In this document: positions 39,448 through 59,434 of the stretch, piece by piece | Layout: every line of letters begins with the position of its first letter | Position numbering within the stretch: the first letter of the stretch is position 1 | Origin: Dehalococcoidales bacterium | GTDB lineage: Bacteria; Chloroflexota; Dehalococcoidia; Dehalococcoidales; RBG-16-60-22 | Direction of reading: 5' to 3' | DNA: 64,000 bases | NCBI GenBank assembly: GCA_034409565.1 | Contig: DAOUMS010000022.1 | Span: forward strand, 116,354-180,353 | Translations under genes and position numbers: made by a program | The notes under the pieces: generated by a model | The model's database searches: none | What the model was told of the DNA's origin: nothing | Seen by the model: only the letters and a program-made list of their open reading frames with translations

Positions 39448-41775
39448 ATGAGATATTCCCCTCTGCAAGTTGATACCAGGGCCAGACTGCGCATTGAGGT
39501 CAAGGGCATAGTACAGGGGGTCGGCTTCCGACCTTTTGTCTACCGGCTAGCCAAGAACTGCCACCTGACTGGCTGGGTACGCAATACCTCCGGCAACGTG
39601 ACCATTGAGGTGGAGGGGCCTGAAGAAAGCGTCCGCCGGTTTCTAGTTCTCCTCAGAGAAAAAACGCCCCCCGCCGCCCGCGTTCAGGATGTTACCACCC
39701 AGAAACTAACCGCCAAAGGTGATATTGATTTTACCATCAGAAAAAGCCAGCCTGAGGCGGGGAAATACCAGCCGGTCTCCCCTGACCTGGCCACCTGCCC
39801 CGAATGTCTGCAAGAGGTCTTTCAGCCGGAAAACCGCCGCTATCTCTATCCCTTCACCAACTGTACCAACTGCGGCCCCCGCTTCACCATCATCCGGGAC
39901 ATTCCCTATGACCGCCCGAAGACTACCATGAGCCGTTTCACCATGTGCCCGGAGTGCCAGGCGGAGTATGACGACCCGCTTGACCGCCGCTTTCATGCCC
40001 AGCCCAACGCCTGCCCGAGGTGCGGCCCCGGCCTGCAACTGGTGGACAGCGATGGTATTCCAGTGAACGACCAAGACCCACTCCGTAAAGCAGCCGAACT
40101 TCTCCAGCGGGGCTATATCATCGCCGTCAAGGGCCTGGGCGGCTTTCAGCTTGCTTGTGATGCTACCAACCGGGAGGTCGTAGCGCGCCTCAGAGAGCGG
40201 AAAAAGCGACCCGCCAAACCGTTTGCCCTCATGATGGCCTCCATTGCCGAAATCGAAAAACACGGCTGCGTTTCACCTGAAGAAGCCGAATTGCTGCTCT
40301 CGCCAAATGCGCCCATCGTCCTGTTGCGGTGGCGGAAAGATGTCTCCAGTGTAACGCCGCTGGTCGCGGAAAATAATAAATATCTCGGTGTCATGCTGCC
40401 CTATACGCCGCTGCACCATATCCTGCTTCACCATGTGGCACGACCGCTGGTCATGACCAGCGGCAACCTCAGCGAGGAACCAATCTGCCAGGATAACGAT
40501 GAAGCCCTGCGCCGACTCCACGGCATTGCCGACTATTTCCTGCTGCACAACCGGGATATACACGCCCGCTACGATGACAGCGTTTACCTCGTAGAAAAAG
40601 ATAAACCGCGCGCCATCAGGCGCGCCCGCGGCTACGCCCCGTCTCCCATCCACCTCCCCTTCAAGGCCAGGCAGGTGCTGGCCTGCGGCACCGAGGAGAA
40701 AAACAGCTTCTGCCTGACCAGAGATGAAAACGCCTTCCTGAGCCAGCACATCGGCGACATGGATAATGAAGAGACACAGGAGCATTTTGAAAATACTATC
40801 GACCTCTACCAGCGACTGTTCCGCGTCCAGCCGGAAATCATCGCCCATGACCTGCACCCTGAGTATCTGTCCACTAAATACGCTCGGCAATATGCCGCGT
40901 CTAAAGGGTTAAAAACAATCGGCATACAGCACCATCATGCCCATGTTGTCAGTTGCCTGGTGGAAAATGAGTTCCGAGAGCCGGTCATCGGTGTCGCCTT
41001 CGATGGCGTGGGCTACGGCACCGATGGCGACCTCTGGGGTGGCGAATTCCTGGTCGCTGACTGGGGCAGTTTCGAGCGCGCCGCCCATCTGGAATATGTG
41101 CCGATGCCGGGCGGAGTTGCTGCCATTCGCCGGCCATACCGCATGGCGCTCAGCTATATCTATACGCTCCTCGGCGAAGAGACGCCACTGGAAGGCCTCC
41201 CCATCATGAGTAAAATAACGGCCGATGAAGTTAATATTGTTAAAGCCCAGCTGGGGCGGAGGTTTAACTCACCGCTTACCTCCGGGGCGGGGCGGCTTTT
41301 TGACGCGGTATCCGCACTGGCCGGCGTCCGGGGGCAGATTGACTACGAGGCACAGGCCGCTATCGAGCTGGAAATGCTTGCCCCCGATGATTTAACCCGG
41401 TTTAAACCCTACCCGTTCGTCATATCCAGAGATGAAAAACCAGCCATAATTAAACTGAAAGAGCTTATTTCCGCCGTGCTCAATGATGTCCAAAATGGCA
41501 TCAAGCCAGACGTCATCTCTGCCCGGTTCCATAAAACAATGGCCCAGATTATTCTGGAGACCTGCCGCTTGATTTCACCGCCGTCCGGCCGGAAAACGGT
41601 GGCCTTGAGCGGCGGCGTTTTTCAGAATCGCCGGTTTTTTAATCTAGCGATTGATGCTCTGGAAAAGGAAGGGTTTCAGGTATTGAGCCACCATACGGTA
41701 CCATGTAATGATGGCGGCATTTCTCTGGGACAAGCAGCAATTGCCAGTTATAAAGAGCTGAATAAAATAGAGTAA
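39448..41775 (+). CDS. hypF: [NiFe]-hydrogenase maturation carbamoyltransferase HypF
   Basis: 775 aa. Acylphosphatase N-terminus (VKGIVQGVGFRPFVYRLA), two zinc-finger pairs (CPECLQE...CTNCGPRF, CPECQAEY...CPRCGP), and YrdC-like plus Kae1-like domains. Confidence 0.95.
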   Translation: MRYSPLQVDTRARLRIEVKGIVQGVGFRPFVYRLAKNCHLTGWVRNTSGNVTIEVEGPEESVRRFLVLLREKTPPAARVQDVTTQKLTAKGDIDFTIRKSQPEAGKYQPVSPDLATCPECLQEVFQPENRRYLYPFTNCTNCGPRFTIIRDIPYDRPKTTMSRFTMCPECQAEYDDPLDRRFHAQPNACPRCGPGLQLVDSDGIPVNDQDPLRKAAELLQRGYIIAVKGLGGFQLACDATNREVVARLRERKKRPAKPFALMMASIAEIEKHGCVSPEEAELLLSPNAPIVLLRWRKDVSSVTPLVAENNKYLGVMLPYTPLHHILLHHVARPLVMTSGNLSEEPICQDNDEALRRLHGIADYFLLHNRDIHARYDDSVYLVEKDKPRAIRRARGYAPSPIHLPFKARQVLACGTEEKNSFCLTRDENAFLSQHIGDMDNEETQEHFENTIDLYQRLFRVQPEIIAHDLHPEYLSTKYARQYAASKGLKTIGIQHHHAHVVSCLVENEFREPVIGVAFDGVGYGTDGDLWGGEFLVADWGSFERAAHLEYVPMPGGVAAIRRPYRMALSYIYTLLGEETPLEGLPIMSKITADEVNIVKAQLGRRFNSPLTSGAGRLFDAVSALAGVRGQIDYEAQAAIELEMLAPDDLTRFKPYPFVISRDEKPAIIKLKELISAVLNDVQNGIKPDVISARFHKTMAQIILETCRLISPPSGRKTVALSGGVFQNRRFFNLAIDALEKEGFQVLSHHTVPCNDGGISLGQAAIASYKELNKIE

Positions 41776-41787
41776 GGAGTAAATCAC

Positions 41788-42015
41788 GTGTGCCTAGCCA
41801 TACCAGCACGGATAAAATCGATAAATGGCACCGAGGCCGAGGTTGAAATCGGCGGCATAATGCGCCAGATAAGTATTATGCTCACCCCTGAGGCCAGGAT
41901 TGGCGATTACGTGCTTCTGCACGCCGGCTATGCCATCAATATTCTCGACCAGGCGCAGGCAGAGGAAACGCTGGCCATATTCGCCGAGATGAGCGAAATT
42001 ATGGAGAAGGAATGA
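41788..42015 (+). CDS. hypC: Hydrogenase maturation chaperone HypC
   Basis: 75 aa beginning MCLAIPARI (essential N-terminal Cys). GTG start. Confidence 0.9.
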   Translation: MCLAIPARIKSINGTEAEVEIGGIMRQISIMLTPEARIGDYVLLHAGYAINILDQAQAEETLAIFAEMSEIMEKE

Positions 42016-43106
42016 AGTTAGTCAGCGAGTTCCGTCAGCCCGAGATGGCAGACGGTCTTGTCCACAGCATCAAGCGACATGCCGGCAAGAAAGCGCGTTT
42101 CATGGAGTTCTGCGGCGGCCATACCGTGTCCATTATGAAGTTTGGCCTCCGCCAGTTGCTACCGTCAACATTGACCCTTACCTCGGGGCCGGGGTGCCCG
42201 GTATGTGTCACGGACAACGCTGACCTTGATAAAGCCATTGCCCTGGCCTCTCTGCCCGATGTCATGGTGGCTTCATTCGGCGACATGGTGAGGGTGCCCG
42301 GCAGCCGTTCCAGCCTTCAGGAGGCTAAGGCAAACGGCGCCGACGTGCGCGTTGTCTATTCCACCCTCGATGCCCTTTCCTTAGCCAGGGAAAACCCGGA
42401 GAAATCGGTGGTATTCCTGGGCATCGGCTTTGAGACCACCGCCCCCACCGTTGCCGCCTCAGTCCTGCAAGCGGAGCGGGAGGGCCTGAAGAATTACTAC
42501 GTGCTCTCCATGCACAAGCTCTGCCCGCCTGTAATCAGGGCGCTGCTGGACTCCGGCGAGGTCAACCTGCAGGGACTTATCTGCCCCGGCCACGTCAGCG
42601 CCGTCATCGGCTCAAGGCCGTGGGGGTTCATCGCCCGCGACTATGGGATACCCTGCGTTGTCTCCGGCTTCGAGCCACTGGATATACTGCAGTGCATTGA
42701 CCTGCTGACAAAGCAGGTGGCCAATGGCGAGGCTAAAGTAGAAATCGCCTACCGGCGCGGGGTCAGCCGGGAGGGAAACCAGACCGCCATCGGGATTATG
42801 GAACGAGTATTCGAGCCTGCTCCGGCACGCTGGCGCGGCTTCGGCGAGGTGGCCGGAAGCGGCCTCAAGCTGCGCTCTGAGTTCGCCCGCTTTGACGCCG
42901 AGCTGAACTTTGACTTTGACCCCGGCCCCACGGAGACCCCGAAGGGCTGTTTATGCGGAGAGGTGCTGCGGGGGGTTAAATCGCCCGGAGACTGCACACT
43001 GTTCCGCCATACCTGCACCCCGGCCAGCCCGGTGGGTCCCTGCATGGTCTCGGCTGAAGGCACCTGTGCCGCTTACTACCATTACGGTGAAGATGATGTC
43101 CGATAA
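42012..43106 (+). CDS. hypD: Hydrogenase maturation protein HypD
   Basis: 364 aa. FCGGHT, GPGCPVCV and C-terminal Cys-rich Fe-S motifs. The start overlaps the hypC stop by 4 nt. Confidence 0.95.
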   Translation: MKLVSEFRQPEMADGLVHSIKRHAGKKARFMEFCGGHTVSIMKFGLRQLLPSTLTLTSGPGCPVCVTDNADLDKAIALASLPDVMVASFGDMVRVPGSRSSLQEAKANGADVRVVYSTLDALSLARENPEKSVVFLGIGFETTAPTVAASVLQAEREGLKNYYVLSMHKLCPPVIRALLDSGEVNLQGLICPGHVSAVIGSRPWGFIARDYGIPCVVSGFEPLDILQCIDLLTKQVANGEAKVEIAYRRGVSREGNQTAIGIMERVFEPAPARWRGFGEVAGSGLKLRSEFARFDAELNFDFDPGPTETPKGCLCGEVLRGVKSPGDCTLFRHTCTPASPVGPCMVSAEGTCAAYYHYGEDDVR

Positions 43107-44100
43107 GATTTTACTGGCCCACGGGAGCGGAGGCAGGCTGGCCCATGATATCATCCACAATAGTTTCCTTCCCGCGCTGTCCAACCCCTTTCTCACCCGG
43201 CTTGACGACTCGGCGGTGGTTGAAGCGGGGGGCAGGCTGGCCTTCACCACCGACAGCTACGTCGTCCAGCCCATCTTTTTCCCCGGCGGGGACATCGGCA
43301 AGCTCGCCGTCTGCGGCACCATAAACGACCTAGCCATGGTAGGCGCTACACCCCACTACTTGAGCCTGGCTTTCATCATTGAAGAAGGTCTGCTGCTGAG
43401 CGACCTCGAAAAAGTGGTCGATTCAATCAAAGAGACGGTCACAGCCGCCGGTGTGGTCGTGGTTACCGGCGATACCAAGGTGGTCAACCGCGGCACCGCC
43501 GATAAACTTTTCATCAATACCGCCGGTATCGGCACCATACCTGATGGGGTGAACATTTCCGGGCACAGCGCCCGACCGGGGGACGTGCTGCTCCTGAACG
43601 GTACCATTGGCGACCACGGTATCGCCGTGCTCAGCCAGCGCGAGGGGATTAATTTTACCACCAAATTAGAAAGCGACTGCGCTCCACTGCACGGCCTGGT
43701 GGCGGAGATGCTGGCGGCAAGCCACAATATCCACTGCCTGCGCGACCCCACCCGCGGCGGCCTGGCCACCACGCTGAACGAAATCGCCGAGCAGTCGGGA
43801 GTAAGCATAAGGATATATGAAGAAAAAATACCGGTCCGGGAGGAGGTCGTCAGCGCCTGCGAGATGCTGGGTCTGGACCCGCTCTACGTGGCCAACGAGG
43901 GCAAGCTGGTGGCCGCCGTAGCCCCCGACGAGGCTGATAGCATCATGGAGCGGATGAAGAGGCATAAATACGGTCGAGACGCCGCCATCATCGGTGAGAT
44001 AAAGGAGGAAAACCCGGGACGGGTGGTCATGAAGACCAGACTCGGTACCACACGCATTATTGATATGCTGGTCGGTGAGCCGCTGCCCAGGATATGCTAG
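43093..44100 (+). CDS. hypE: Hydrogenase maturation protein HypE
   Basis: MMSDKILLAHGSGG... N-terminus and C-terminal ...PRIC, the conserved terminal Cys motif. The track's upstream extension from 42910 overlaps hypD and was trimmed. Confidence 0.9.
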   Translation: MMSDKILLAHGSGGRLAHDIIHNSFLPALSNPFLTRLDDSAVVEAGGRLAFTTDSYVVQPIFFPGGDIGKLAVCGTINDLAMVGATPHYLSLAFIIEEGLLLSDLEKVVDSIKETVTAAGVVVVTGDTKVVNRGTADKLFINTAGIGTIPDGVNISGHSARPGDVLLLNGTIGDHGIAVLSQREGINFTTKLESDCAPLHGLVAEMLAASHNIHCLRDPTRGGLATTLNEIAEQSGVSIRIYEEKIPVREEVVSACEMLGLDPLYVANEGKLVAAVAPDEADSIMERMKRHKYGRDAAIIGEIKEENPGRVVMKTRLGTTRIIDMLVGEPLPRIC

Positions 44101-44102
44101 TT

Positions 44103-44444
44103 ATGCATGAGATGTCGGTAACCATGAGCCTTTTAGACCTTGTCCTGGAGGAAGCCGCCAAAGCCGGCGCCAGCAAAATAGTCGGGGTAAATATCGTGCT
44201 CGGCGAGATGACCGGCATCATTGACCACTATGTTCAGGCGAACTTTGAACTGCTCAGCCAGAACACGCCCGCGGAAGGAGCCGCACTTTCCTTTCGGAAC
44301 ATACCACGGCAGGCGCGCTGCCGACACTGCGCTCATTTATTTCAGCCCACCGACTTCGAATGGACCTGCCCGAAATGCCAGACAGCGGAAATCGAAATAA
44401 CCGGCGGTAGTGAACTGTACGTCGAGAGTATTGAGGTGGAGTAA
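44103..44444 (+). CDS. hypA: Hydrogenase nickel insertion protein HypA
   Basis: MHEMSV N-terminus (MHE Ni site) and a CxxC...CxxC zinc site (CRHC...CPKC). Confidence 0.85.
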   Translation: MHEMSVTMSLLDLVLEEAAKAGASKIVGVNIVLGEMTGIIDHYVQANFELLSQNTPAEGAALSFRNIPRQARCRHCAHLFQPTDFEWTCPKCQTAEIEITGGSELYVESIEVE

Positions 44445-45115
44445 TGGAAATTAAAGTATTGAAAGACATCCTGAATGCCAACAGCCAGATTGCAGAGCAG
44501 AACCGAAAGCTGCTCACCAGCAAACGCGTCATGACCATCAACCTTATGTCCTCACCGGGTTCCGGGAAAACAACGCTTATTCTGAGGACAGTCGAGGCAC
44601 TCAAGGGCAAGGCCCGCATTGCCGTAATTGAAGGCGACGTCAGTTCCAGCATTGACACCGAGAAGCTGAGCCAGGCCGGAATTACCGCCATCCAGATAAA
44701 TACCGGCGGTGCCTGCCATCTGGACGCCAGCATGGTGAATTCGGGGCTGGCCAACCTTCCCCTTGATGACATTGACATCCTTTTCATTGAAAACGTGGGC
44801 AACCTCATCTGCCCCGGCGGCTTTGACCTCGGTGAGTACCTCAGGGTGGTCATTCTCAGCACACCCGAGGGCGATGATAAACCGCACAAGTACCCGTTGC
44901 TCTTCACCCAGGCCAAGGCGCTGCTGGTAAATAAATCCGACCTGCTGCCACACGTCGGATTTGACCTGGCCGCTTTCACCCGCGCCTTCAAAGGTCTCAA
45001 TCAAGAAGCCGCCCTTTTCACCGTCTCCGGACTTACCGGTGAAGGCATCGATGAATGGGTGAAATGGGTCATGGATAATCTAAATAAGATGCGCGCCCTG
45101 AAGCCGGTAAAATAG
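44444..45115 (+). CDS. hypB: Hydrogenase nickel insertion GTPase HypB
   Basis: 223 aa. P-loop SSPGSGKTTLI, ENVGNLICP and NKSDL G-motifs. No His-rich N-terminal stretch. Confidence 0.9.
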   Translation: MEIKVLKDILNANSQIAEQNRKLLTSKRVMTINLMSSPGSGKTTLILRTVEALKGKARIAVIEGDVSSSIDTEKLSQAGITAIQINTGGACHLDASMVNSGLANLPLDDIDILFIENVGNLICPGGFDLGEYLRVVILSTPEGDDKPHKYPLLFTQAKALLVNKSDLLPHVGFDLAAFTRAFKGLNQEAALFTVSGLTGEGIDEWVKWVMDNLNKMRALKPVK

Positions 45116-45132: not shown

Positions 45133-45918
45133 ATGGAAGACAGGAAGATTGTCAACGTAGGCATCACCGGAGCCTCCGGACACATTGGCACCACACTGGC
45201 CGAAGGTCTCCCAGAACACTACAGGCTTACCCTGTTTTACAACCGACGCGAGATAAAAGCCGACCTCGCCGGCAAGCACAAAACGGTAAAGGCTGACCTA
45301 GCCAGAGTCGAACAGGTACAGGGGATATTTGAGGGGCTCGATGCGGTGCTCCACCTCGCCGCCGACCCATCGACCGAGGCCAGCTGGGAAAGCGTCCTCC
45401 ACAATAACATCATCGCCACCTACAACGTGTTTGAGGAGGCAAGAAGGGCAGGCGTGCTGAAAATCGTGTTCGCCAGCACCAATCACACGCAGCATGATTA
45501 CATTGGTAAAACCCCTCTGACCCTGGACCGGTTTTTCGTCCCGACCATGGGATTCGTGAAACTGAGCGACCCGCCGGCACCCGACTCGTACTACGGCATC
45601 TCCAAGCTCTTCGGGGAAAACTTGGGCTGGTACTACTCAAGAAGATATGGCATCCAGTTTATATCCCTGCGCATCGGGTCAACATTCCCACAGGATGACC
45701 CCTCTATCTGGAAAGGCACAGAAAGAGAAGGCCATACGCGGGCTTTATTCCTGAGCAAGAGGGACTGCGTGGCGGCATTTGCCCGAGCCCTTGCGGTGAA
45801 CACTGACTTTCTGCTGGCCTACGCCATCAGCAACAACGACCGCCGTTTCTTTGACCTCACCGAGACCAAGGAAAAGCTGGGCTTTTATCCCAGAGATAAC
45901 GCCGAAGACTACTTCTAA
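45133..45918 (+). CDS. NAD-dependent epimerase/dehydratase-family (SDR) protein
   Basis: 261 aa. VGITGASGHIGTTLAEGL Rossmann motif and YGISKLFGE (YxxxK). Confidence 0.75.
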   Translation: MEDRKIVNVGITGASGHIGTTLAEGLPEHYRLTLFYNRREIKADLAGKHKTVKADLARVEQVQGIFEGLDAVLHLAADPSTEASWESVLHNNIIATYNVFEEARRAGVLKIVFASTNHTQHDYIGKTPLTLDRFFVPTMGFVKLSDPPAPDSYYGISKLFGENLGWYYSRRYGIQFISLRIGSTFPQDDPSIWKGTEREGHTRALFLSKRDCVAAFARALAVNTDFLLAYAISNNDRRFFDLTETKEKLGFYPRDNAEDYF

Positions 45919-45971: not shown

Positions 45972-46017
45972 CTCACTTTACGGCGTTTTGCTTCTCTTTT
46001 TATAGGGGTGAGTTAGG

Positions 46018-46125
46018 CTAGTCCTCCCACTCGCCACCTTTACCGATTTTAGAGATGCAAAAGACCAGACCACCAAGAAGTATTACCCAGATAACAATGG
46101 TGGAAACAATAGCTCCGGTTGTCAT
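46018..46125 (-). CDS. 35-aa single-TM protein, MetS-like small subunit of the adjacent NSS transporter
   Basis: Below the ORF-track size cut-off. My translation is MTTGAIVSTIVIWVILLGGLVFCISKIGKGGEWED. Its ATG lies 3 nt after the transporter stop. The pattern resembles the small subunits of methionine/alanine NSS importers. Confidence 0.5.
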   Translation of the reverse strand: MTTGAIVSTIVIWVILLGGLVFCISKIGKGGEWED

Positions 46126-46128
46126 TTT

Positions 46129-47646
46129 CTACTCACCCCCTCCGGCCGTCTTGGTCTTGATGAGTGACAGCAGGATGCTGAATATCAGGGTCACACCGAG
46201 TATAATCCATATGATGTCCGAGCCACCCAGCGCTCCGATTTCATAGCCGCTATACTGCTCTTTCATGTCCTTCATGAAGCCACCAACGACCACCACAAAT
46301 ATCAGTCCCGCGGGTACTACTATTCTTATCAGCCAGTCCCACCAGGCACCGATTCTGATATCCGAAGTCTCGTTGTTATGCTCTCTCAGCTTTCCAGGAC
46401 CGAATACCCAGCCGATAACCAGACAGGCCAGGGCACCGGTAATCAGCAGGCCATAGAAACACACGGCACGGTCAACCATATCCAGCCAGTACAGGCCACC
46501 CTGGGTGGTATAAAGAACGCCCACCAAGAAGGCAACGATGCTGACAATCAGGGTAGCTTTTATCCGGCTCAGGCCAAATTTGTCCATGAGCGGTACCGCG
46601 ACACCTCCATAGGCAAGGAAGTATGCCGACGTTGTACCCAGGGAGAACAAGCAGAGGAAGAAGAGTATCCCCACCAGAGCGTTGGCTCCCGGCATCATGG
46701 ATACTGCCACAGGATAGGTGACGAACGCCAGGCCCAAGCCCGAAGCACTGACCTCGCCAATCGAGATGTTCATCGCCTGCATGATGAAGCCAACGGTGCT
46801 GAAAACAGCAAAGCCGGCGAAGAAAGCCGTAGCGGCATCGGAGAAGGAAGTGATAACGGCACTGTTATTGACATCGGCCTTCCTAGCGATGAAGCTGCCA
46901 TAGGCTACCATGCCTGCCATACCCAGAGATAAGGTGAAGGCAATCTGGCTGAAGGCAGCAAACCAGACGTCTACATTACCGAGAACAGCAAAGTCAGGCG
47001 CCAGATAGAAGTTCAACCCTTCCAGTGCGCCGGGCAGGGTCACGCCCCGGATAAACAGGACGATTAGTAATAGCCAGGGCAGGATTACCAGGAATATGGA
47101 GACTTTGCCGATTACCCGGGCACCCCGGAACATTATCAGGAAAATAACCAGCCAGACAAATGCCAGCAAGCCAAGGATGAGCCATACCGGAGGCCCGAGA
47201 ACCATTGGGCCATCTGAAAGTTGTAAAACGGTGCCGAAAAAGAAATCACCGGCACCCTCAGCGCCAGCCTGACCCATGCCCCAGGCAACGGTTGCAGAAC
47301 TGATGGCGTAGCGCAGCGACCAGGCAATGATTACCGTGTAGTAGGTGACAATCAGAAAGGCAACCCAGACCGGCCACCAGCCCAGCCACTCCCACTTTCT
47401 GCCGATACCTTCGAATGCGCCGGGCGCACTTTTCTGGAAATAGCGGCCCATGCCGAATTCCATCAGCATCCAGGGAATGCCCATAACAATGAGGCCAATC
47501 ATATACGGAATTAAAAAGGTGCCACCACCGTACTCGTAGGTAATATAGGGGAAGCGCCAGACATTCCCCAGACCGATTGCCGAACCTATGGCGGCAAAGA
47601 TAAACGGCGCTCGACTGGTCCATCTTTCCCTCGTTACTTCAGCCAA
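46129..47646 (-). CDS. Sodium-dependent transporter, neurotransmitter:sodium symporter (NSS/SNF) family
   Basis: 505 aa. RERWTSRAPFIFAAIGSAIGLGNVWRFPYITYEYGGGTFLIPY is the NSS TM1 signature. TTG start 8 nt after AAGGAGG. Confidence 0.9.
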   Translation of the reverse strand: MAEVTRERWTSRAPFIFAAIGSAIGLGNVWRFPYITYEYGGGTFLIPYMIGLIVMGIPWMLMEFGMGRYFQKSAPGAFEGIGRKWEWLGWWPVWVAFLIVTYYTVIIAWSLRYAISSATVAWGMGQAGAEGAGDFFFGTVLQLSDGPMVLGPPVWLILGLLAFVWLVIFLIMFRGARVIGKVSIFLVILPWLLLIVLFIRGVTLPGALEGLNFYLAPDFAVLGNVDVWFAAFSQIAFTLSLGMAGMVAYGSFIARKADVNNSAVITSFSDAATAFFAGFAVFSTVGFIMQAMNISIGEVSASGLGLAFVTYPVAVSMMPGANALVGILFFLCLFSLGTTSAYFLAYGGVAVPLMDKFGLSRIKATLIVSIVAFLVGVLYTTQGGLYWLDMVDRAVCFYGLLITGALACLVIGWVFGPGKLREHNNETSDIRIGAWWDWLIRIVVPAGLIFVVVVGGFMKDMKEQYSGYEIGALGGSDIIWIILGVTLIFSILLSLIKTKTAGGGE

Positions 47647-47795
47647 TTAAGTGACCTCCTTTTTTGAAGATAGCCATTGGACCAAATATCCTTAGAATTG
47701 TGGTAGGCAGGCACCTCCTTCCTCACGAGCCGTCGTGATTGCTTATCACCGCAGGTATGAATTTAGGTATACATAAAATAACCCTGTAGCTCAAA

Positions 47796-47824
47796 ATTTT
47801 ACACGGGAAACAAGGTATTGTCAA
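47796..47824 (-). promoter_or_regulatory. Sigma-70-like promoter (TTGACA-17-TAAAAT) for the NSS transporter operon
   Basis: Read on the minus strand. It predicts a leader of about 140 nt before the TTG start. Confidence 0.5.
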
Positions 47825-47843
47825 TAGGTATGCCCGAAATATA

Positions 47844-47872
47844 TTGACAATGAGACCAAATTATTATTAAAT
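47844..47872 (+). promoter_or_regulatory. Promoter-like element (TTGACA-17-TTAAAT) for the RNA locus below
   Basis: Exact -35 and a mediocre -10. Divergent from the NSS promoter. Confidence 0.4.
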
Positions 47873-47880
47873 TATATATA

Positions 47881-48138
47881 GAGGCTCGTGGCTCCCGAAT
47901 CTTAACTTGGAGGAGGCGATGCTATGAAGCTTCACGAAGTCTTCGGGGTGTGGCAGGTGGACAGCTGATGCCCTGTCTCCGGACAGGGCGGACGGACCTC
48001 GAACCCGACTCGAGTTAGTGATGTAGAGGTCAGTCTCAGCAAAGAGAGACCACATCCGGCGGTGGTAACCGGAAGTGAGTCGGGCTCGGGATGAAAAAGC
48101 AACCAGCGGGGGGCACTGAGAAGTGCCCCCCAATTTTT
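47881..48138 (+). ncRNA. Unclassified structured RNA / leader candidate (about 255 nt) containing a 14-codon sORF
   Basis: It is bounded by the promoter-like element and a strong terminator, and I traced several helices by hand (see findings). I could not match it to any RNA family. Confidence 0.4.
48108..48138 (+). terminator. Rho-independent terminator
   Basis: GGGGGGCACT-GAGA-AGTGCCCCCC (10-bp stem, GNRA loop) followed by AATTTTT. Confidence 0.75.
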
Positions 48139-48226
48139 CACCAGATAAACACCATGATAATGCCGTCTAAGCCTGATACTTGACACTGTATCGCCACGAA
48201 ACCTACAATTGATAACCGGGTTCGTC

Positions 48227-48874
48227 ATGAGCAAAAGCGCAAGAGTAGTGCCAGCAATCCTTACCGATGACCCCACCGCCCTGGAGAAGATGCTGCGCCA
48301 GGCAGAAAGCTTCACCGACTACGTTCAGATTGATATTATGGACGGCCTTTTTGTACCATCGCGGAGCGTTACCTGGGAACAGGTCGCCGGCCTGCCCGGC
48401 AGCCTGAAATGGGAAGCTCACCTGATGGTCATGCAACCGGAAAAATATATTGAGGGTTTCCAGCAAGCCGGTGCCAGCAAGGTTATCTTCCACCGCGAAG
48501 CCACCGCTTCCCCCCACGCAGTAATTTCAGGGGTCAGAAAGCTGGGACTTACCGCAGGGCTGGCCATCAATCCCGAGACCCCCGTATCCGCCATCGCGCC
48601 CTGTATCAATGAAATTGACAGCGTGCTTCTCCTTACCGTAACGCCCGGCTTCTACGGCAGCAAGTTTATCCCCGAGGTGATGGGCAAGGTGGCGGAACTG
48701 CGCCGTATCCGGCCTGGAATTAAAATCGGCGTTGACGGCGGCATCAAGGAAAGCAATATCAGGGAAATCGCCAGCACCGGAGTCGACTATGTCTGCGTGG
48801 GCAGCGCCATTTTTCTGCAGCCGGACCCGGCGGAAAGCTACCGCCGACTGCAGTCCCTCGTCCAGCAGCGCTGA
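48227..48874 (+). CDS. rpe: Ribulose-phosphate 3-epimerase
   Basis: VVPAILTDDP ... QIDIMDGLFVP ... AHLMV ... LLLTVTPGFYGSKF ... VDGGI. I chose the ATG at 48227; the track's TTG at 48209 is also possible. Confidence 0.85.
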   Translation: MSKSARVVPAILTDDPTALEKMLRQAESFTDYVQIDIMDGLFVPSRSVTWEQVAGLPGSLKWEAHLMVMQPEKYIEGFQQAGASKVIFHREATASPHAVISGVRKLGLTAGLAINPETPVSAIAPCINEIDSVLLLTVTPGFYGSKFIPEVMGKVAELRRIRPGIKIGVDGGIKESNIREIASTGVDYVCVGSAIFLQPDPAESYRRLQSLVQQR

Positions 48875-48908
48875 TAGCCAGTCGGGTACGTGTTTCTTGT
48901 TTCTCCGC

Positions 48909-50510
48909 CTAGCTCAAGCCGGATACCATTTTTTCGAGCGCGGTCGTGTCCCCGGAACCAAGATGGATTCTGACCACACGTCTCTTCAGCGACCGCAGGG
49001 TCTGCAGGTCGCCAAGTGCCTGCGCATCGGCCAGTATGTTAAACGTGTATGGTGCACCGGGAATCGGTATCTTATGTTGCTGGGCCGCGGTCACCTGGAG
49101 GAAAAGCCCGGTGTTAGGGCCTCCCTTGTGCAACTGCCCGGTGGAGTGCAGCAGGCGCGGCCCGTAGCCGGCAGTGGTGGCGATATGGCTTTTCTCCACC
49201 ACTTTGCGGCGCAACTCAGTGCATATTTTTTCCAGCTCTGGCATCTGTCTGGTGTAGGCCATAATCGCCAGGTAATCGCCCCGCCTGGCTCCGGCCAGCA
49301 ACTCACCAAGTGAACCATTTACCTCCAGAAACGGCAGACGGCCGGAACTCTGGTACTCCTGCAGGACCCTGCCAGTGGCATCCTTGGCCGCCTGCACGTT
49401 GGGCTGGTCAAACGGGTTTATGCCCAGTATCGAGCCAGCGACCGCAGTAGCAAACTCCCAGCGAAAGAACTCGGTGCCAATATCCTGCTTATCTTTGAGT
49501 TCCAGCGTAACCACGGGTTGCCCTGAAGATTTAATACGCCCCACCACCCCATCAATATCATCGTTATTATCATCCTGAAGGCGCAGGTAAATGAAAAGTC
49601 GGTCATCGCCATAGTGCTCGGGCGCGGTAAATGGTTCCCCAAGCACCGGGATAATTCCGGTACCCTCCTTGCCCGTGCTCTCGGCGAGGAGCTGCTCCAG
49701 CCACAGCCCGAAGCTGCCAATTGAAGGTGAAGTAACCAGCGTCAGCTTATCCCTGCCCTGCCGGGCGAAGGTGCCCAGCAAGGCGCCGAGCCAGGCGCCG
49801 GGATTCTCTTGAAGCAGTACATCGGCCGCACACTGACGGCCTATCACTTCGGCACGCTCGAGAACAGACATTATGTCAATCCCCACCAGCGCCGCTGGCA
49901 GCAGCCCGAAGTATGACAGCACCGAGTAGCGTCCACCCACGTCCTCCGGATTCAGGAAGGCACGACGGAACCCTGCCTCCTCGGCAAGACCGACCAGCGA
50001 TGACCCGGCATCGGTAATGGCAACAAAGTTCTGCCCTGCCCTCTCCCTGCCCAGCGACTGCTCAACCAGACCGCGAAAATATTTGTAGAAGGTAAGCGTC
50101 TCGATGGTGCCACCCGACTTTGATGAAACCAGGAACAGGGTCTGCGCCGGGTCGATGGTTTCCGTAACCGCCGCCACCCAGTCGGGCACGGTGGAGTCCA
50201 GCAATTTAAATTCGGGATAACCCCTGGCGCGGCCAAAAGTCTGGTACAGCACCTCCGCCCCCAGGCTGGCACCACCCATGCCCAGCAGCACGACATGTCT
50301 GTACCCGGCACCGCGCACTTCCTGCGCAAACGAGGTTAATTCCGGCACCTTGGCTTTAAACAGTCCAGGGAGAATGAGCCAGCCAAGGCGGTTGGTTATC
50401 TCTTTCGGTTCCGGCTTCCACACCGTGTGGTCCTTGCGCCAGAGGCGCGCCACCATATCCTTCTGCTTGAAATCATGGAGCATTTCGGCCACCGCCGGGA
50501 AATCCGTCAT
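48909..50510 (-). CDS. pgi: Glucose-6-phosphate isomerase
   Basis: About 533 aa from the internal ATG (MTDFPAV...), which avoids an 80-nt overlap with rpiB. PGI-type SIS domain motifs (VVLLGMGGASLG, FLVSSKSGGTIET). Confidence 0.8.
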   Translation of the reverse strand: MTDFPAVAEMLHDFKQKDMVARLWRKDHTVWKPEPKEITNRLGWLILPGLFKAKVPELTSFAQEVRGAGYRHVVLLGMGGASLGAEVLYQTFGRARGYPEFKLLDSTVPDWVAAVTETIDPAQTLFLVSSKSGGTIETLTFYKYFRGLVEQSLGRERAGQNFVAITDAGSSLVGLAEEAGFRRAFLNPEDVGGRYSVLSYFGLLPAALVGIDIMSVLERAEVIGRQCAADVLLQENPGAWLGALLGTFARQGRDKLTLVTSPSIGSFGLWLEQLLAESTGKEGTGIIPVLGEPFTAPEHYGDDRLFIYLRLQDDNNDDIDGVVGRIKSSGQPVVTLELKDKQDIGTEFFRWEFATAVAGSILGINPFDQPNVQAAKDATGRVLQEYQSSGRLPFLEVNGSLGELLAGARRGDYLAIMAYTRQMPELEKICTELRRKVVEKSHIATTAGYGPRLLHSTGQLHKGGPNTGLFLQVTAAQQHKIPIPGAPYTFNILADAQALGDLQTLRSLKRRVVRIHLGSGDTTALEKMVSGLS

Positions 50511-59243: not shown

Positions 59244-59254
59244 GCATCACATAA

Positions 59255-59434
59255 CGGCAGGAGATACCCGCGGGGAGCCGAAGGGGAAAATGGCAGCGAG
59301 ATAGAACTCAAGGCCATGAAACTCTCAGGCAAAAGGACTGCCGGAAATAACACCTCTGGAGAGACCCTGTTTCAGGGTCACCGAAGGGGCAACCCGTTAC
59401 AAACGGGTGATCTCTCAGGTAAAAGGACAGGGGG
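59255..59434 (+). promoter_or_regulatory. Tandem glycine riboswitch (two aptamers)
   Basis: Aptamer 1 (59255-59343): CGGCAGGAGAT...GCCGAAGGGGAAA...CTCTCAGGCAAAAGGACTGCCG. Aptamer 2 (about 59353-59434): CTCTGGAGAGACC...CACCGAAGGGGCAAC...CTCTCAGGTAAAAGGACAGGGG. Both carry the GGAGA / ACCGAAGGGGCAA / CTCTCAGG..AAAAGGAC core of the glycine class, and the element lies upstream of gcvH. Confidence 0.85.

Follow-up and report, generated by a model that had tools for sequence, protein, structure and literature searches.

An undescribed family of structured RNAs carrying a conserved 14-codon open reading frame in Dehalococcoidia

The 24-residue TnaC leader peptide of the tna operon, with its characteristic W12/D16/P24 spacing, senses a small molecule in the ribosomal tunnel and blocks access of Rho to the transcript. 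In Gram-positive bacteria, mRNAs can also be stabilised from their 5' ends, as by the stalled ribosome of ermC, the leader of aprE (a gene that encodes a secreted protease) or the STAB-SD sequence of cryIIIA. The ErmBL leader peptide arrests the ribosome with Asp10 in the P site, residues Val9 to Lys11 being critical (PMC4935803), and PepNL, the product of a 14-codon upstream open reading frame (uORF) of the aminopeptidase gene pepN in E. coli, arrests it with tRNA-Asp in the P site (PMC11890864). In Sinorhizobium, rnTrpL is an attenuator-derived small RNA that is reported to act in trans, as is its 14-residue leader peptide, peTrpL.

Here, we describe a locus from a Dehalococcoidales bacterium that has likenesses to each of these systems. 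It lies in a stretch of 64,000 nucleotides, the whole of which is called the window below, and its features, which include a 14-codon small open reading frame (sORF) and helices named P0 to P4, are as follows:

47844..47873, + strand: predicted sigma-70-type promoter (TTGACA, 17-18 nt spacer, TTAAAT/TAAATT; 10/12 in a consensus scan)
47844-47849, + strand: -35 box TTGACA of this promoter, with the -10 box at 47867-47873 (the scan reads TTGACA-18-TAAATT, 10/12)
47880..47935, + strand: closed 5' leader domain, from the covariation of P0 and from folds
47881-47886 with 47928-47933, + strand: helix P0, GAGGCU with AGCUUC, joining the 5' end of the transcript to sORF codons 2-4
47909-47916, + strand: Shine-Dalgarno sequence GGAGGAGG, 7 nt before the ATG at 47924, read from the sequence
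47924-47968, + strand: 14-codon sORF, predicted product MKLHEVFGVWQVDS, with a TGA stop at 47966-47968
47969-47990, + strand: GC-rich hairpin P1 (GCCCUGUC / GACAGGGC, loop UCCG, plus a U-G closing pair), supported by covariation
47997-48011, + strand: 5' strand of the long-range helix P2, partner 48077-48091
48028-48051, + strand: hairpin P3, within a three-way junction, a hairpin being kept here across copies
48056-48072, + strand: hairpin P4, CCGG / CCGG with a 9-nt loop in the window, supported by covariation
48077-48091, + strand: 3' strand of P2, partner 47997-48011
48108..48138, + strand: intrinsic terminator, with a 10-bp stem (8 G-C) at 48108-48131, a GAGA loop and a U-run at 48134-48138

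With its own promoter and terminator by scan, the interval is predicted to be a self-contained, separately transcribed promoter-to-terminator unit of about 260 nt, as a preliminary description made from the sequence alone had proposed. All the elements listed in that description were found when the sequence was re-read, at or within 1-2 nt of where it had placed them: the promoter that it gave as TTGACA-17-TTAAAT is the 10/12 site that the scan scores with an 18-nt spacer, and the terminator that it singled out is the strongest terminator-like site within positions 46000-50000. The first base of P1 in the window is the nucleotide directly 3' of the sORF stop codon. Of 31 related copies of the element with a recognisable promoter, 25 have the end of their -10 box 5-8 nt before the base at which pairing in the transcript begins.

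These copies are part of an undescribed family, made of an RNA and an sORF, that is conserved across the Dehalococcoidia, a class of bacteria that matters in sediments and in organohalide respiration. At least 131 copies were recovered from Dehalococcoidia genomes and sediment metagenomes; the element is carried by ten of 15 Dehalococcoidia loci anchored on rpe, and a metagenome scan added at least 120 further loci. Among the matches listed, 113 of 131 copies have the P2-P4 domain. A profile search of 780 kb of related loci found no diverged extra copies, and no copy was found in viral contigs. Searches for a known family gave the same answer as the preliminary description, which could not assign the RNA to one. 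At gathering threshold, Rfam matched only two glycine aptamers (59248-59433) in the whole window; at E <= 10, the region of the element matched only microRNA, IRES and lncRNA noise (E >= 0.66), and 20 related loci gave no Rfam match at all. Neither a tRNA nor a tmRNA was found anywhere in the window by ARAGORN, Pfam and NCBIfam had no match for the read-through peptides of the family, and a full-text literature search did not find GVWQVD, the core of the family peptide. The short strings that had been likened to the ydaO (c-di-AMP) class are meaningless, since Rfam gave neither ydaO nor any other relevant match even at E <= 10.

The multi-helix RNA that had been drawn from a single sequence was borne out by its relatives, in which the whole element is kept and the helices covary. 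Folding of the 265-nt RNA gives -115.6 kcal/mol (z = -4.18), a value that none of 200 dinucleotide shuffles reaches. Across the family alignment, 93.2% of helix cells are paired, compared with 37-49% in slid controls, and 358 cells are compensatory, compared with 64-85; none of 500 shuffles reaches the observed values. Of 122 unique copies, 91 have P0 as a perfect 6-bp helix, which only 9% of shuffled leaders can form, and C never faces A at either of its varying pairs (CG 41, UG 35, UA 23 and CA 0 at one; CG 85, UG 11, UA 7 and CA 0 at the other), while in folds the inner helices of the leader partly bury the Shine-Dalgarno sequence. For P1, 99% of the cells are paired, with compensatory changes at four of seven pairs. 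The 13-bp helix P2 is 92% paired and has changes on both sides at nine pairs, its matched strands reaching -21.1 kcal/mol where permuted partners reach -17.3. At the position of P3, a hairpin of at least 5 bp with dG <= -5 is found in 97 of 100 copies despite sequence change. P4, the stem of which is GCGGUG / CACCGC in most relatives, is 92% paired, with changes on both sides at all four counted pairs. The hairpin loops outside P4 are not conserved. The terminator is 95% paired, and 13 of its 13 pairs covary across the family. Altogether, five helices are supported by covariation. A T-arm-like GGUUCGA and a likeness of P4 to the 3' end of 16S rRNA were dropped after inspection by eye because both lie inside covarying helices.

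About ten copies, which we call type B, have the same sORF and hairpin P1 without the P2-P4 domain and the terminator. The type B sORF stop codon overlaps the start codon of the next gene in three loci (GUGA in L103, UAAUG in L121 and L058), where that gene is secreted, peptidase-like and next to a two-component system; in L059 and L065b, the stop codon lies 19-24 nt upstream of the next start codon. PDB sequence searches with two of the type B secreted proteins gave nothing useful. By its architecture, the type B module would be a uORF, and the overlap of stop and start fits a downstream gene that depends on it, an arrangement that is absent in the window and in 113 of the 131 copies listed. 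Given translational coupling in type B, ribosomes would have to get past P1 at least sometimes, which counts against the arrest reading set out below. Two things lay beyond the reach of the preliminary description: sORF and hairpin form a portable module, and no part of the locus is better conserved than the peptide.

The sORF, earlier proposed to be a translated mini-ORF, looks genuine. A start codon is present in 123 of 123 copies (ATG in 107, GTG in 16), preceded in nearly every copy by a GGAGG-type Shine-Dalgarno sequence, the core of which stops 6 nt short of the start codon in 78 of 113, and the family peptide has the consensus M[KR]LH-x-[LIV]-[FYL]-GVWQVD-x. According to codon tables, wobble bases vary freely while the GVWQVD residues are kept (V9, for example, is GTA in 41 copies, GTT in 39, GTG in 33 and GTC in 10). 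For most members, however, the non-wobble bases of codons 3-4 and 8-13 were prescribed by the search pattern with which they had been retrieved, and the unbiased coding evidence consists only of codons 5-7, 14 and 15 and of 18 copies found independently with an RNA-only profile that made no reference to the sORF sequence. In the sORFs of these 18 copies, the conserved codons have two, zero and five variable columns at positions 1, 2 and 3, respectively (p = 0.02), and G8R or W10R is seen in two of them. At codon 6, which is NTN, only the second position is conserved and Leu is encoded by both TTR and CTN, and codon 7 encodes F, Y or L, so that conservation at these two codons is of the amino-acid type. 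Conservation of codons 2-4 is explained in part by their pairing in P0. Judging from these codon patterns, the first 13 residues, and above all GVWQVD, are under amino-acid-level selection.

The sORF was not called by gene callers, and when a 42-residue concatenated query was run against 5.8 billion predicted proteins, the motif turned up in just three read-through ORFs, 30-37 residues long. Even when read with the greatest caution, the family is a new RNA family with five covariation-supported helices and a 14-codon gene missed by annotation pipelines. Only 75 of 128 copies stop at codon 15, the stop being missing there in about 41%, and C-terminal tails of 3-28 residues are tolerated and not conserved. 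Codon 15 is UGA in the window and most copies and UAA, UAG or a sense codon elsewhere, which led us to reject selenocysteine recoding (UGA followed by a hairpin); programmed frameshifting was also rejected, a slippery heptamer being absent and an internal Shine-Dalgarno-like AGGUGG being lost in CAA-GUU variants.

These codon patterns make it improbable that the element is a purely non-coding small RNA, in which an untranslated sORF would be constrained at the RNA level, for example because the stretch from P0 to P1 serves as a single-stranded seed or binds a protein. Such a region would suit codons 5-15, which are the only long unpaired stretch of the RNA, and initiation would be disfavoured by the pairing of codons 2-4 in P0 and of part of the Shine-Dalgarno sequence; moreover, if the sORF were translated, ribosomes on the read-through variants could unfold P1 and P2. 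Against this reading stand the period-three variation, with only the second position of codon 6 kept, F or Y at codon 7 and Leu from two codon families, the nearly invariant Shine-Dalgarno sequence and start codon at proper spacing, and the type B stop codons, whose overlap with the following start is of the kind seen in translational coupling.

The preliminary description had left a choice between a leader-peptide attenuator and an independent small RNA or dual-function RNA. The latter reading fits: the element combines a predicted promoter and terminator of its own with a small ORF, a layout that at the sequence level it shares with dual-function RNAs of the SgrS/SgrT, RNAIII/hld, SR1/SR1P and rnTrpL/peTrpL class. 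The former does not hold for rpe, which has its own promoter. Control of read-through into rpe by a trp-type leader-peptide transcription attenuator or by a riboswitch is very improbable, even if the order of sORF, structures and terminator upstream of a co-oriented gene is the expected one, the leader ORF has a Shine-Dalgarno sequence and a start codon upstream of the terminator, and rpe is the next gene in 36 of 131 copies among the matches listed. In 17 of 17 rpe-linked loci, rpe is separated from the terminator by a near-consensus promoter of its own (TTGACA-N17/18-TAnAAT); most copies have other neighbours, which vary and are often convergent, and in 20 copies among the matches listed a convergent gene directly follows the terminator. 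The leader ORF contains no tandem or enriched regulatory codons, with only Leu and Val recurring among the conserved positions (twice each) next to one Trp and one His. The terminator, which we take to be constitutive, was unchanged in folds with an imposed ribosome footprint, and mutually exclusive antiterminator and terminator pairings were not found, the candidate antiterminator pairings scoring -9.10 against -9.08 for permuted and -8.64 for shuffled controls. Switch pairings of the sORF with downstream RNA, of the P1 3' arm with the terminator, of the P2 5' strand with the terminator 5' arm and of the P2 3' strand with the terminator arms were likewise indistinguishable from permuted or shuffled controls. 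With a conserved promoter in front of rpe itself and no sign of an antiterminator, the element is not an attenuator of this gene. The nearest precedent for its stand-alone layout is rnTrpL, a terminated leader transcript that serves as a structured small RNA and also encodes a 14-residue peptide; rnTrpL, however, is a genuine trp attenuator that lies upstream of trpE(G) and has tandem Trp codons, whereas the element described here has a single Trp codon and neither an antiterminator nor a regulated gene in cis.

The distance between the sORF and P1 is almost fixed when counted from codon 13: of 116 copies, 100 have the GCCC base of P1 at 7 nt from this codon and 15 at 8 nt, so that only one departs from a spacing of 7-8 nt, in spite of the variation at codons 14-15. 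We tentatively favour the reading that sORF and P1 together form a nascent-peptide pause or arrest module, which may act as a uORF in type B and head a stand-alone structured RNA in the window. With Asp13 in the P site, some 11 nt would separate the first base of its codon from the base of P1 downstream, which would place P1 about where mRNA enters the ribosome according to published ribosome footprint and helicase measurements. At this stage, the whole conserved peptide would fill the exit tunnel and the sequence past codon 13 would be free to vary, which under an arrest model fits the unconserved stop codon. In the minority architecture, the module could control the secreted peptidase-like genes as a uORF by translational coupling; in the majority architecture, that of the window included, no gene would be regulated in cis and a paused or translating ribosome might instead control how the attached RNA folds, how stable it is or how active, making the transcript a sensor-coupled, dual-function small RNA. 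It counts against such a sensor that the window shows neither a cis-regulated gene nor a conserved alternative pairing that ribosome position could switch, which leaves it without a defined output.

Homology to a described arrest peptide was not found, only the C-terminal V-D resembling ErmBL; amino-acid-level conservation of a short ORF, as in arrest peptides, is present. As in TnaC, an invariant Trp and an invariant Asp stand a few positions apart, but the two are not homologous, and neither rut sites nor Rho logic are part of the evidence for the family. The stem at the extreme 5' end and the very strong Shine-Dalgarno sequence, or a ribosome bound near the 5' end, recall the Gram-positive 5' stabilisers, which nevertheless require neither a conserved peptide nor a hairpin at a fixed codon distance. 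The likeness to PepNL lies in a 14-codon uORF with its stop at codon 15, in an Asp at or beside the C-terminus of a peptide that fits entirely in the exit tunnel, and in the peptidase-like genes that follow type B copies. PepNL has, however, no sequence similarity to the family peptide, for which arrest is only predicted; it arrests at the stop codon, which about two fifths of the family copies lack at that position; and it is a cis leader of one gene, whereas most family copies are stand-alone, with a terminator and a conserved RNA domain. ErmBL and ErmCL are also encoded by short uORFs with critical last residues, ErmBL stalling at N-V-D with Asp10 in the P site (PMC4935803) where the conserved part of the family peptide ends in Q-V-D13, and an RNA hairpin follows the stall site, here a predicted one. 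The erm leaders differ in needing a macrolide and in a hairpin rearrangement that frees the ribosome-binding site of a resistance gene; the family has no resistance gene, no alternative pairing was found in it, and it is conserved across a whole bacterial class.

A broader version of the arrest reading, which we regard as doubtful, is that of a hitherto unseen, class-wide ribosome-arrest sensor, composed of the 13-residue nascent peptide M-R/K-L-H-x-L-F/Y-G-V-W-Q-V-D and of the hairpin near the mRNA entry of the ribosome, that would stall translation in response to a cellular signal; it would gate secreted peptidase genes as a uORF and control a housekeeping structured small RNA as an orphan. 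If true, the orphan form would be a sensor-coupled riboregulator without a cis target, a layout not known for arrest peptides. Should the arrest reading hold, a regulatory nascent peptide that is both new and deeply conserved would have come to light in a little-studied and mostly uncultivated class, and it would head a stand-alone structured RNA and not a gene. The peptide is short enough for direct toeprinting and cryo-EM.

Alternatively, the sORF could be a micropeptide gene whose free 13-14-residue product is functional, with the RNA and terminator serving as a stabilising 3' UTR and type B copies being operons that start with the same small gene. Conservation at the amino-acid level and the strong Shine-Dalgarno sequence are what such a gene would have, the sORF is the most conserved part of the element while P2-P4 can be replaced (three copies keep the sORF, P1 and the terminator and have other hairpins instead), and a trans-acting 14-residue leader peptide is known in peTrpL. 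We consider it unlikely on balance: a free 14-mer would hardly be expected to lack its codon 15 stop so often or to bear unconserved tails, this reading accounts neither for the strict spacing between sORF and P1 nor for the covariation of the P2-P4 junction, and no modifying enzyme, exporter or partner gene was seen in a conserved neighbourhood around the copies.

A peptide gene with a start region buried by 5' pairing, on a very stable RNA with its own promoter and terminator, also recalls type I toxin-antitoxin loci, in which a small toxic peptide is made from a highly structured mRNA whose ribosome-binding site is sequestered. This last reading is extremely improbable for the family. Its peptide is charged, 13-14 residues long and without a hydrophobic membrane-spanning segment, and a scan found no antisense (minus-strand) promoter inside the element. 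The window has a single copy, and two copies occur in only one of 135 related loci scanned (L065). Finally, the element is vertically conserved with stable synteny, and the type B copies appear to be translationally coupled to ordinary genes.

Comparison of its copies shows that the promoter-to-terminator locus upstream of rpe encodes an independent, conserved and highly structured RNA carrying a translated-looking mini-ORF (sORF), the peptide of which is under selection. All the features that a preliminary description had listed were found again within 47844-48138 by sequence reading and promoter/terminator scans, as follows:

47844-47849 and 47867-47873, plus strand: promoter, TTGACA and -10 (TTGACA-18-TAAATT in a consensus scan, 10/12)
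47909-47916, plus strand: Shine-Dalgarno GGAGGAGG, 7 nt upstream of the ATG at 47924
47924-47968, plus strand: 14-codon sORF encoding MKLHEVFGVWQVDS, read from the sequence
47969-47990, plus strand: hairpin P1, starting directly 3' of the sORF stop codon
47997-48011 with 48077-48091, plus strand: long-range helix P2
48028-48051 and 48056-48072, plus strand: hairpins P3 and P4, enclosed by P2
48108-48131, plus strand: terminator of 10 bp (8 G-C) followed by a U-run, found by scan

The 265-nt RNA of the window folded at -115.6 kcal/mol (z = -4.18 compared to 200 dinucleotide shuffles, 0/200 being as stable). As first described, the element has no known RNA family: Rfam gave 0 matches here at gathering thresholds and, at E <= 10, microRNA, IRES or lncRNA noise only, while ARAGORN found no tRNA and, in line with the initial reading, no tmRNA. 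Since Rfam gives only noise at the element, with no ydaO match even at E <= 10, the short strings once likened to the c-di-AMP (ydaO) class are meaningless.

The element belongs to a conserved family. Fifteen genome loci were collected with rpe as the anchor, and nhmmer with the 302-nt interval as query recovered the element in 10 of these, all from Dehalococcoidia metagenome-assembled genomes (E 6e-68 to 2e-14). Since the sORF was the most strongly conserved part of the distant copies, metagenome contigs were scanned with the sORF pattern TGARNCTNCAYN9GGNGTNTGGCARGTNGA, which returned at least 120 loci. The family comprises at least 131 copies (128 unique among those listed), and a profile lacking the sORF and P1 detected the P2-P4 RNA domain in 113 of the 131 listed. 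Viral contigs held no copy, Rfam had 0 matches on 20 related loci, and gene callers did not predict the sORF in related loci. In a set of 5.8 billion predicted proteins, the motif was carried by only three ORFs, all of 30-37 residues and none fused to a longer protein: two are read-through variants, and in the third the call begins upstream of the start codon.

The structure test was based on A1, a MAFFT alignment of 100 canonical copies made from sequence alone, in which the helices of the element covary. RNAalifold proposed 45 pairs, and compensatory changes occurred in 32. For the five-helix structure, 93.2% of cells were in standard pairs compared to 37-49% in slid controls, and 358 cells were altered on both sides compared to 64-85; 0/500 shuffles matched the observed values on every measure. 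Paired cells amounted to 99% in P1, 92% in P2 (covariation at 9/13 pairs), 92% in P4 (4/4 pairs) and 95% in the terminator helix (13/13 pairs), and the P3 region aligned poorly, yet a hairpin stood at that position in 97/100 copies. Despite their covariation, the terminator stems (A1 columns 330-367; window 48108-48131) keep a purine core that is unusually constant, GUGGAGGGCAC / GUGCCCUCCAC, in which GGAGG faces CCUCC; pairing tests against permuted or shuffled sequences gave no alternative partner for either arm.

An extra helix that the preliminary description had missed, P0, joins GARGCY (47881-47886) to codons 2-4, ARGCUUC (47928-47933). The match is a perfect 6 bp in 91/122 unique listed copies compared to 9% of shuffled leaders. 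Its varying pairs are CG41/UG35/UA23/CA0 and CG85/UG11/UA7/CA0: C never stands opposite A, so that codon 2 (Lys or Arg) covaries with the 5' strand of the helix. Within P0, CYGAAU is paired to UUCGGG, and AGGU to an anti-Shine-Dalgarno of the ACCU type, thereby enclosing the start region in a stack of helices. Since the -10 ends 5-8 nt upstream of P0 in 25 of the 31 copies with a recognisable promoter, P0 takes in the 5' end of the RNA. Two internal duplications were also seen. Family-wide, UGGCAGG of codons 10-12 (47951-47956) duplicates the P1 3' arm GGCAGGGC (47982-47989), which gives the P1 5' arm two possible partners, but the alternative helix showed no covariation and was much weaker than P1, and the repeat may be a coincidence. 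In many copies, the P2-P3 junction carries AGUGAGUU, a duplicate of AAGUGAGUU at the start of the P2 3' strand (A1 columns ~175-190 and 250-258); this stretch, not conserved in the window's clade, has stops in all three frames and is the end point of the long read-through ORFs.

A start codon is present in all 123 unique listed copies (ATG 107, GTG 16), nearly all with a GGAGG-type Shine-Dalgarno, whose core ends 6 nt upstream of the start codon in 78/113 copies, and the consensus peptide is M-[KR]-L-H-x-[LIV]-[FYL]-G-V-W-Q-V-D-x. Because the pattern by which most family members were found held codons 3-4 and 8-13 constant except at their wobble bases, unbiased coding evidence can come only from the codons left free (5-7, 14 and 15) and from copies found independently of the sORF. 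At codon 6, the second base alone is kept (NTN), with Leu from both TTR and CTN; codon 7 alternates between F, Y and L, and codons 5 and 14 are variable. The independent set consists of further rpe-homologue loci with elements detected by a P2-P4-only profile, and there the Shine-Dalgarno, start codon and sORF were kept in all complete copies. Across its 18 distinct sORFs, variable columns in conserved codons numbered 2, 0 and 5 at positions 1, 2 and 3 (hypergeometric p = 0.02), and the first-position changes were singletons. In the listed copies of the large set, the wobble bases that the pattern permitted varied freely, with V9 A41/T39/G33/C10, Q11 G96/A27, V12 G85/T27/A8/C3 and D13 C93/T27. 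Codons 2-4 are under a double constraint that includes P0; judged from codon variation, the clean amino-acid-level signal is that of G8-D13. One singleton change is G8R (L150/L151) and the other W10R, in the L149 copy (around 1690-1735), which starts with TTG; in these loci the RNA domains are intact despite substitution of an 'invariant' residue; these sORFs could be decaying or tolerated variants.

We also considered whether the element acts as an attenuator or riboswitch for rpe, a leader-peptide attenuator having been one of the original suggestions. The neighbours vary: rpe lies downstream in only 36/131 listed copies, and in 20 loci the terminator is immediately followed by a conserved ORF in convergent orientation, with rpe mostly on its far side. 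A TTGACA-N17/18-TAnAAT promoter stands between the element terminator and rpe in each of the 17 rpe-linked loci examined (in the window, TTGACA-N18-TACAAT at 48180-48209, plus strand). When the window RNA was folded with an imposed ribosome footprint, the terminator was unchanged, and four combinations of P2 strands with terminator arms scored like permuted or shuffled partners (P2 5' strand with terminator 5' arm, -9.10 vs -9.08 and -8.64 kcal/mol), whereas the true helices were clearly more stable than controls (P2, -21.1 vs -17.3; terminator, -23.4 vs -15.1 kcal/mol). Pairings of the sORF with downstream RNA, or of the P1 3' arm with the terminator, were no better than in shuffled sequences. 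Thus, the separate rpe promoter, the varied neighbours and the lack of any switch pairing better than controls make an attenuator or riboswitch for rpe very unlikely. This rpe promoter is strongly conserved, often within the string AAACCTACAAT, with equivalent sites in L001-L009 and L137-L152. The convergent ORF (91-120 residues, about +236 to +600 from the start of the sORF) has no Pfam match; in L152, where it occupies 1447-1740 on the minus strand, it is called as a gene.

Eleven pattern matches in 10 of the listed loci (L032, L049 with its near-duplicate L108, L050, L053, L058, L059, L065 twice, L103 and L121) carry the sORF without P2-P4 or a terminator, and are referred to as type B. Except in both L065 copies, a P1-like hairpin lies at equal distance, and a Shine-Dalgarno-preceded start codon follows 3' of the sORF; in 8/10 loci, the ORF so opened has an N-terminal stretch resembling a signal peptide or membrane anchor; that of L065b (one of the two L065 copies) reads as a membrane anchor. 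The sORF stop overlaps the next start in L103 (GUGA) and in L121 and L058 (UAAUG), directly precedes GGAGG and an ATG in L053 (where that ATG opens a very short ORF and a secreted protein is called further downstream), and lies 19 nt upstream of the next start in L059 and 24 nt in L065b. Read from sequence, these spacings are a signature of translational coupling. The downstream proteins include a C39-like peptidase carrying an I69 inhibitor-type prodomain and a protein that has an HELGH motif; the others had no Pfam or PDB match. In L016, L030 and L042, the sORF, P1 and terminator are kept with other hairpins in place of P2-P4. Since P2-P4 can be lost or replaced, the sORF and P1 form a portable core, a modular unit that these copies show to be reused as what appears to be a coupled uORF. 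Around type B leaders, OmpR-type response regulator genes flank the sORF-led secreted-protein genes of L032, L049, L058, L065 and L103 (with a histidine kinase gene in L049, L065 and L103), direct repeats occur upstream (for example TGTGTTACTGT twice in L103), and transposase or integrase genes lie near L059, L103 and L121.

The chief alternative reading is a true micropeptide gene whose 3' UTR is structured, but it leaves two observations unexplained. One is a dispensable stop codon: the stop is at codon 15 in 75/128 unique listed copies and its position is not conserved, 18 ORFs terminating inside P1 (17-23 residues) and 33, of 27-42 residues, reaching the 5' strand of P2 or the junction, with tails that are unconserved translations of RNA helices. 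The other is the hairpin spacing: the invariant GCCC of P1 starts 7 nt after codon 13 in 100/116 copies and 8 nt after it in 15/116, fixed although codons 14-15 vary. When Asp13 occupies the P site, ~11 nt separate the base of P1 from the first nucleotide of the Asp13 codon; published ribosome footprint and helicase measurements place the mRNA entry point at about this distance. The unconserved stop and the fixed spacing indicate that translation itself is what matters, rather than a free peptide.

We infer that the sORF-P1 module may be a regulatory nascent peptide with a pause hairpin: once the full 13-residue peptide fills the exit tunnel, P1 would meet the ribosome, and the resulting pause or arrest, which a small molecule or factor might modulate, would set translation of the coupled secreted-protein gene in type B loci and, in the window architecture, how the attached P2-P4 RNA folds, how stable it is or how active. 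Precedents for such a nascent-peptide reading are ErmBL, which stalls with Asp10 in the P site and in which Val9-Lys11 are critical (PMC4935803), PepNL, a 14-codon uORF that precedes a peptidase gene and whose arrest at UGA15 leaves tRNA-Asp in the P site (PMC11890864), and rnTrpL/peTrpL, a terminated leader that serves as a small RNA and also encodes an active peptide of 14 residues.

The family is new and of a known kind, translated leaders or dual-function small RNAs; also new is its orphan layout, an arrest-like uORF heading a structured RNA. It had no Rfam, Pfam or NCBIfam match, and a full-text literature search did not find the motif. A 2026 RNA-seq study of D. mccartyi CBDB1 describes three abundant small RNAs that match no Rfam family; a sigma-70 binding site is predicted for each, and one of them, sRNA2, belongs to the core genome (PMC12961961). 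This sRNA2 could be a counterpart of the sORF-RNA family.

The source genome is Dehalococcoidales-type, and the element has the following neighbours:

39448-45115, plus strand: upstream hydrogenase-maturation cluster, hypF, hypD, hypE, hypA-like and hypB/cobW-like (Pfam of orthologues)
45133-45918, plus strand: NAD-dependent epimerase-like gene after the hyp cluster (Pfam of orthologues)
46129-47646, minus strand: sodium:neurotransmitter-symporter-family transporter (PF00209 in orthologous loci)
48227-48874, plus strand: rpe (PF00834)
beyond rpe, minus strand: pgi, rpiB and tkt

A divergent near-consensus promoter (47796-47824, minus strand, TTGACA-17-TAAAAT, 11/12) is directed at the transporter gene, which would thus have a ~150-nt 5' UTR; a plus-strand hairpin was flagged at 47723-47738 within its upstream stretch 47647-47796, and Rfam had no match in 47647-47824. 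The sole Rfam matches in the window are tandem glycine riboswitch aptamers (RF00504) at 59248-59433 on the plus strand, with 54.4 and 52.8 bits.
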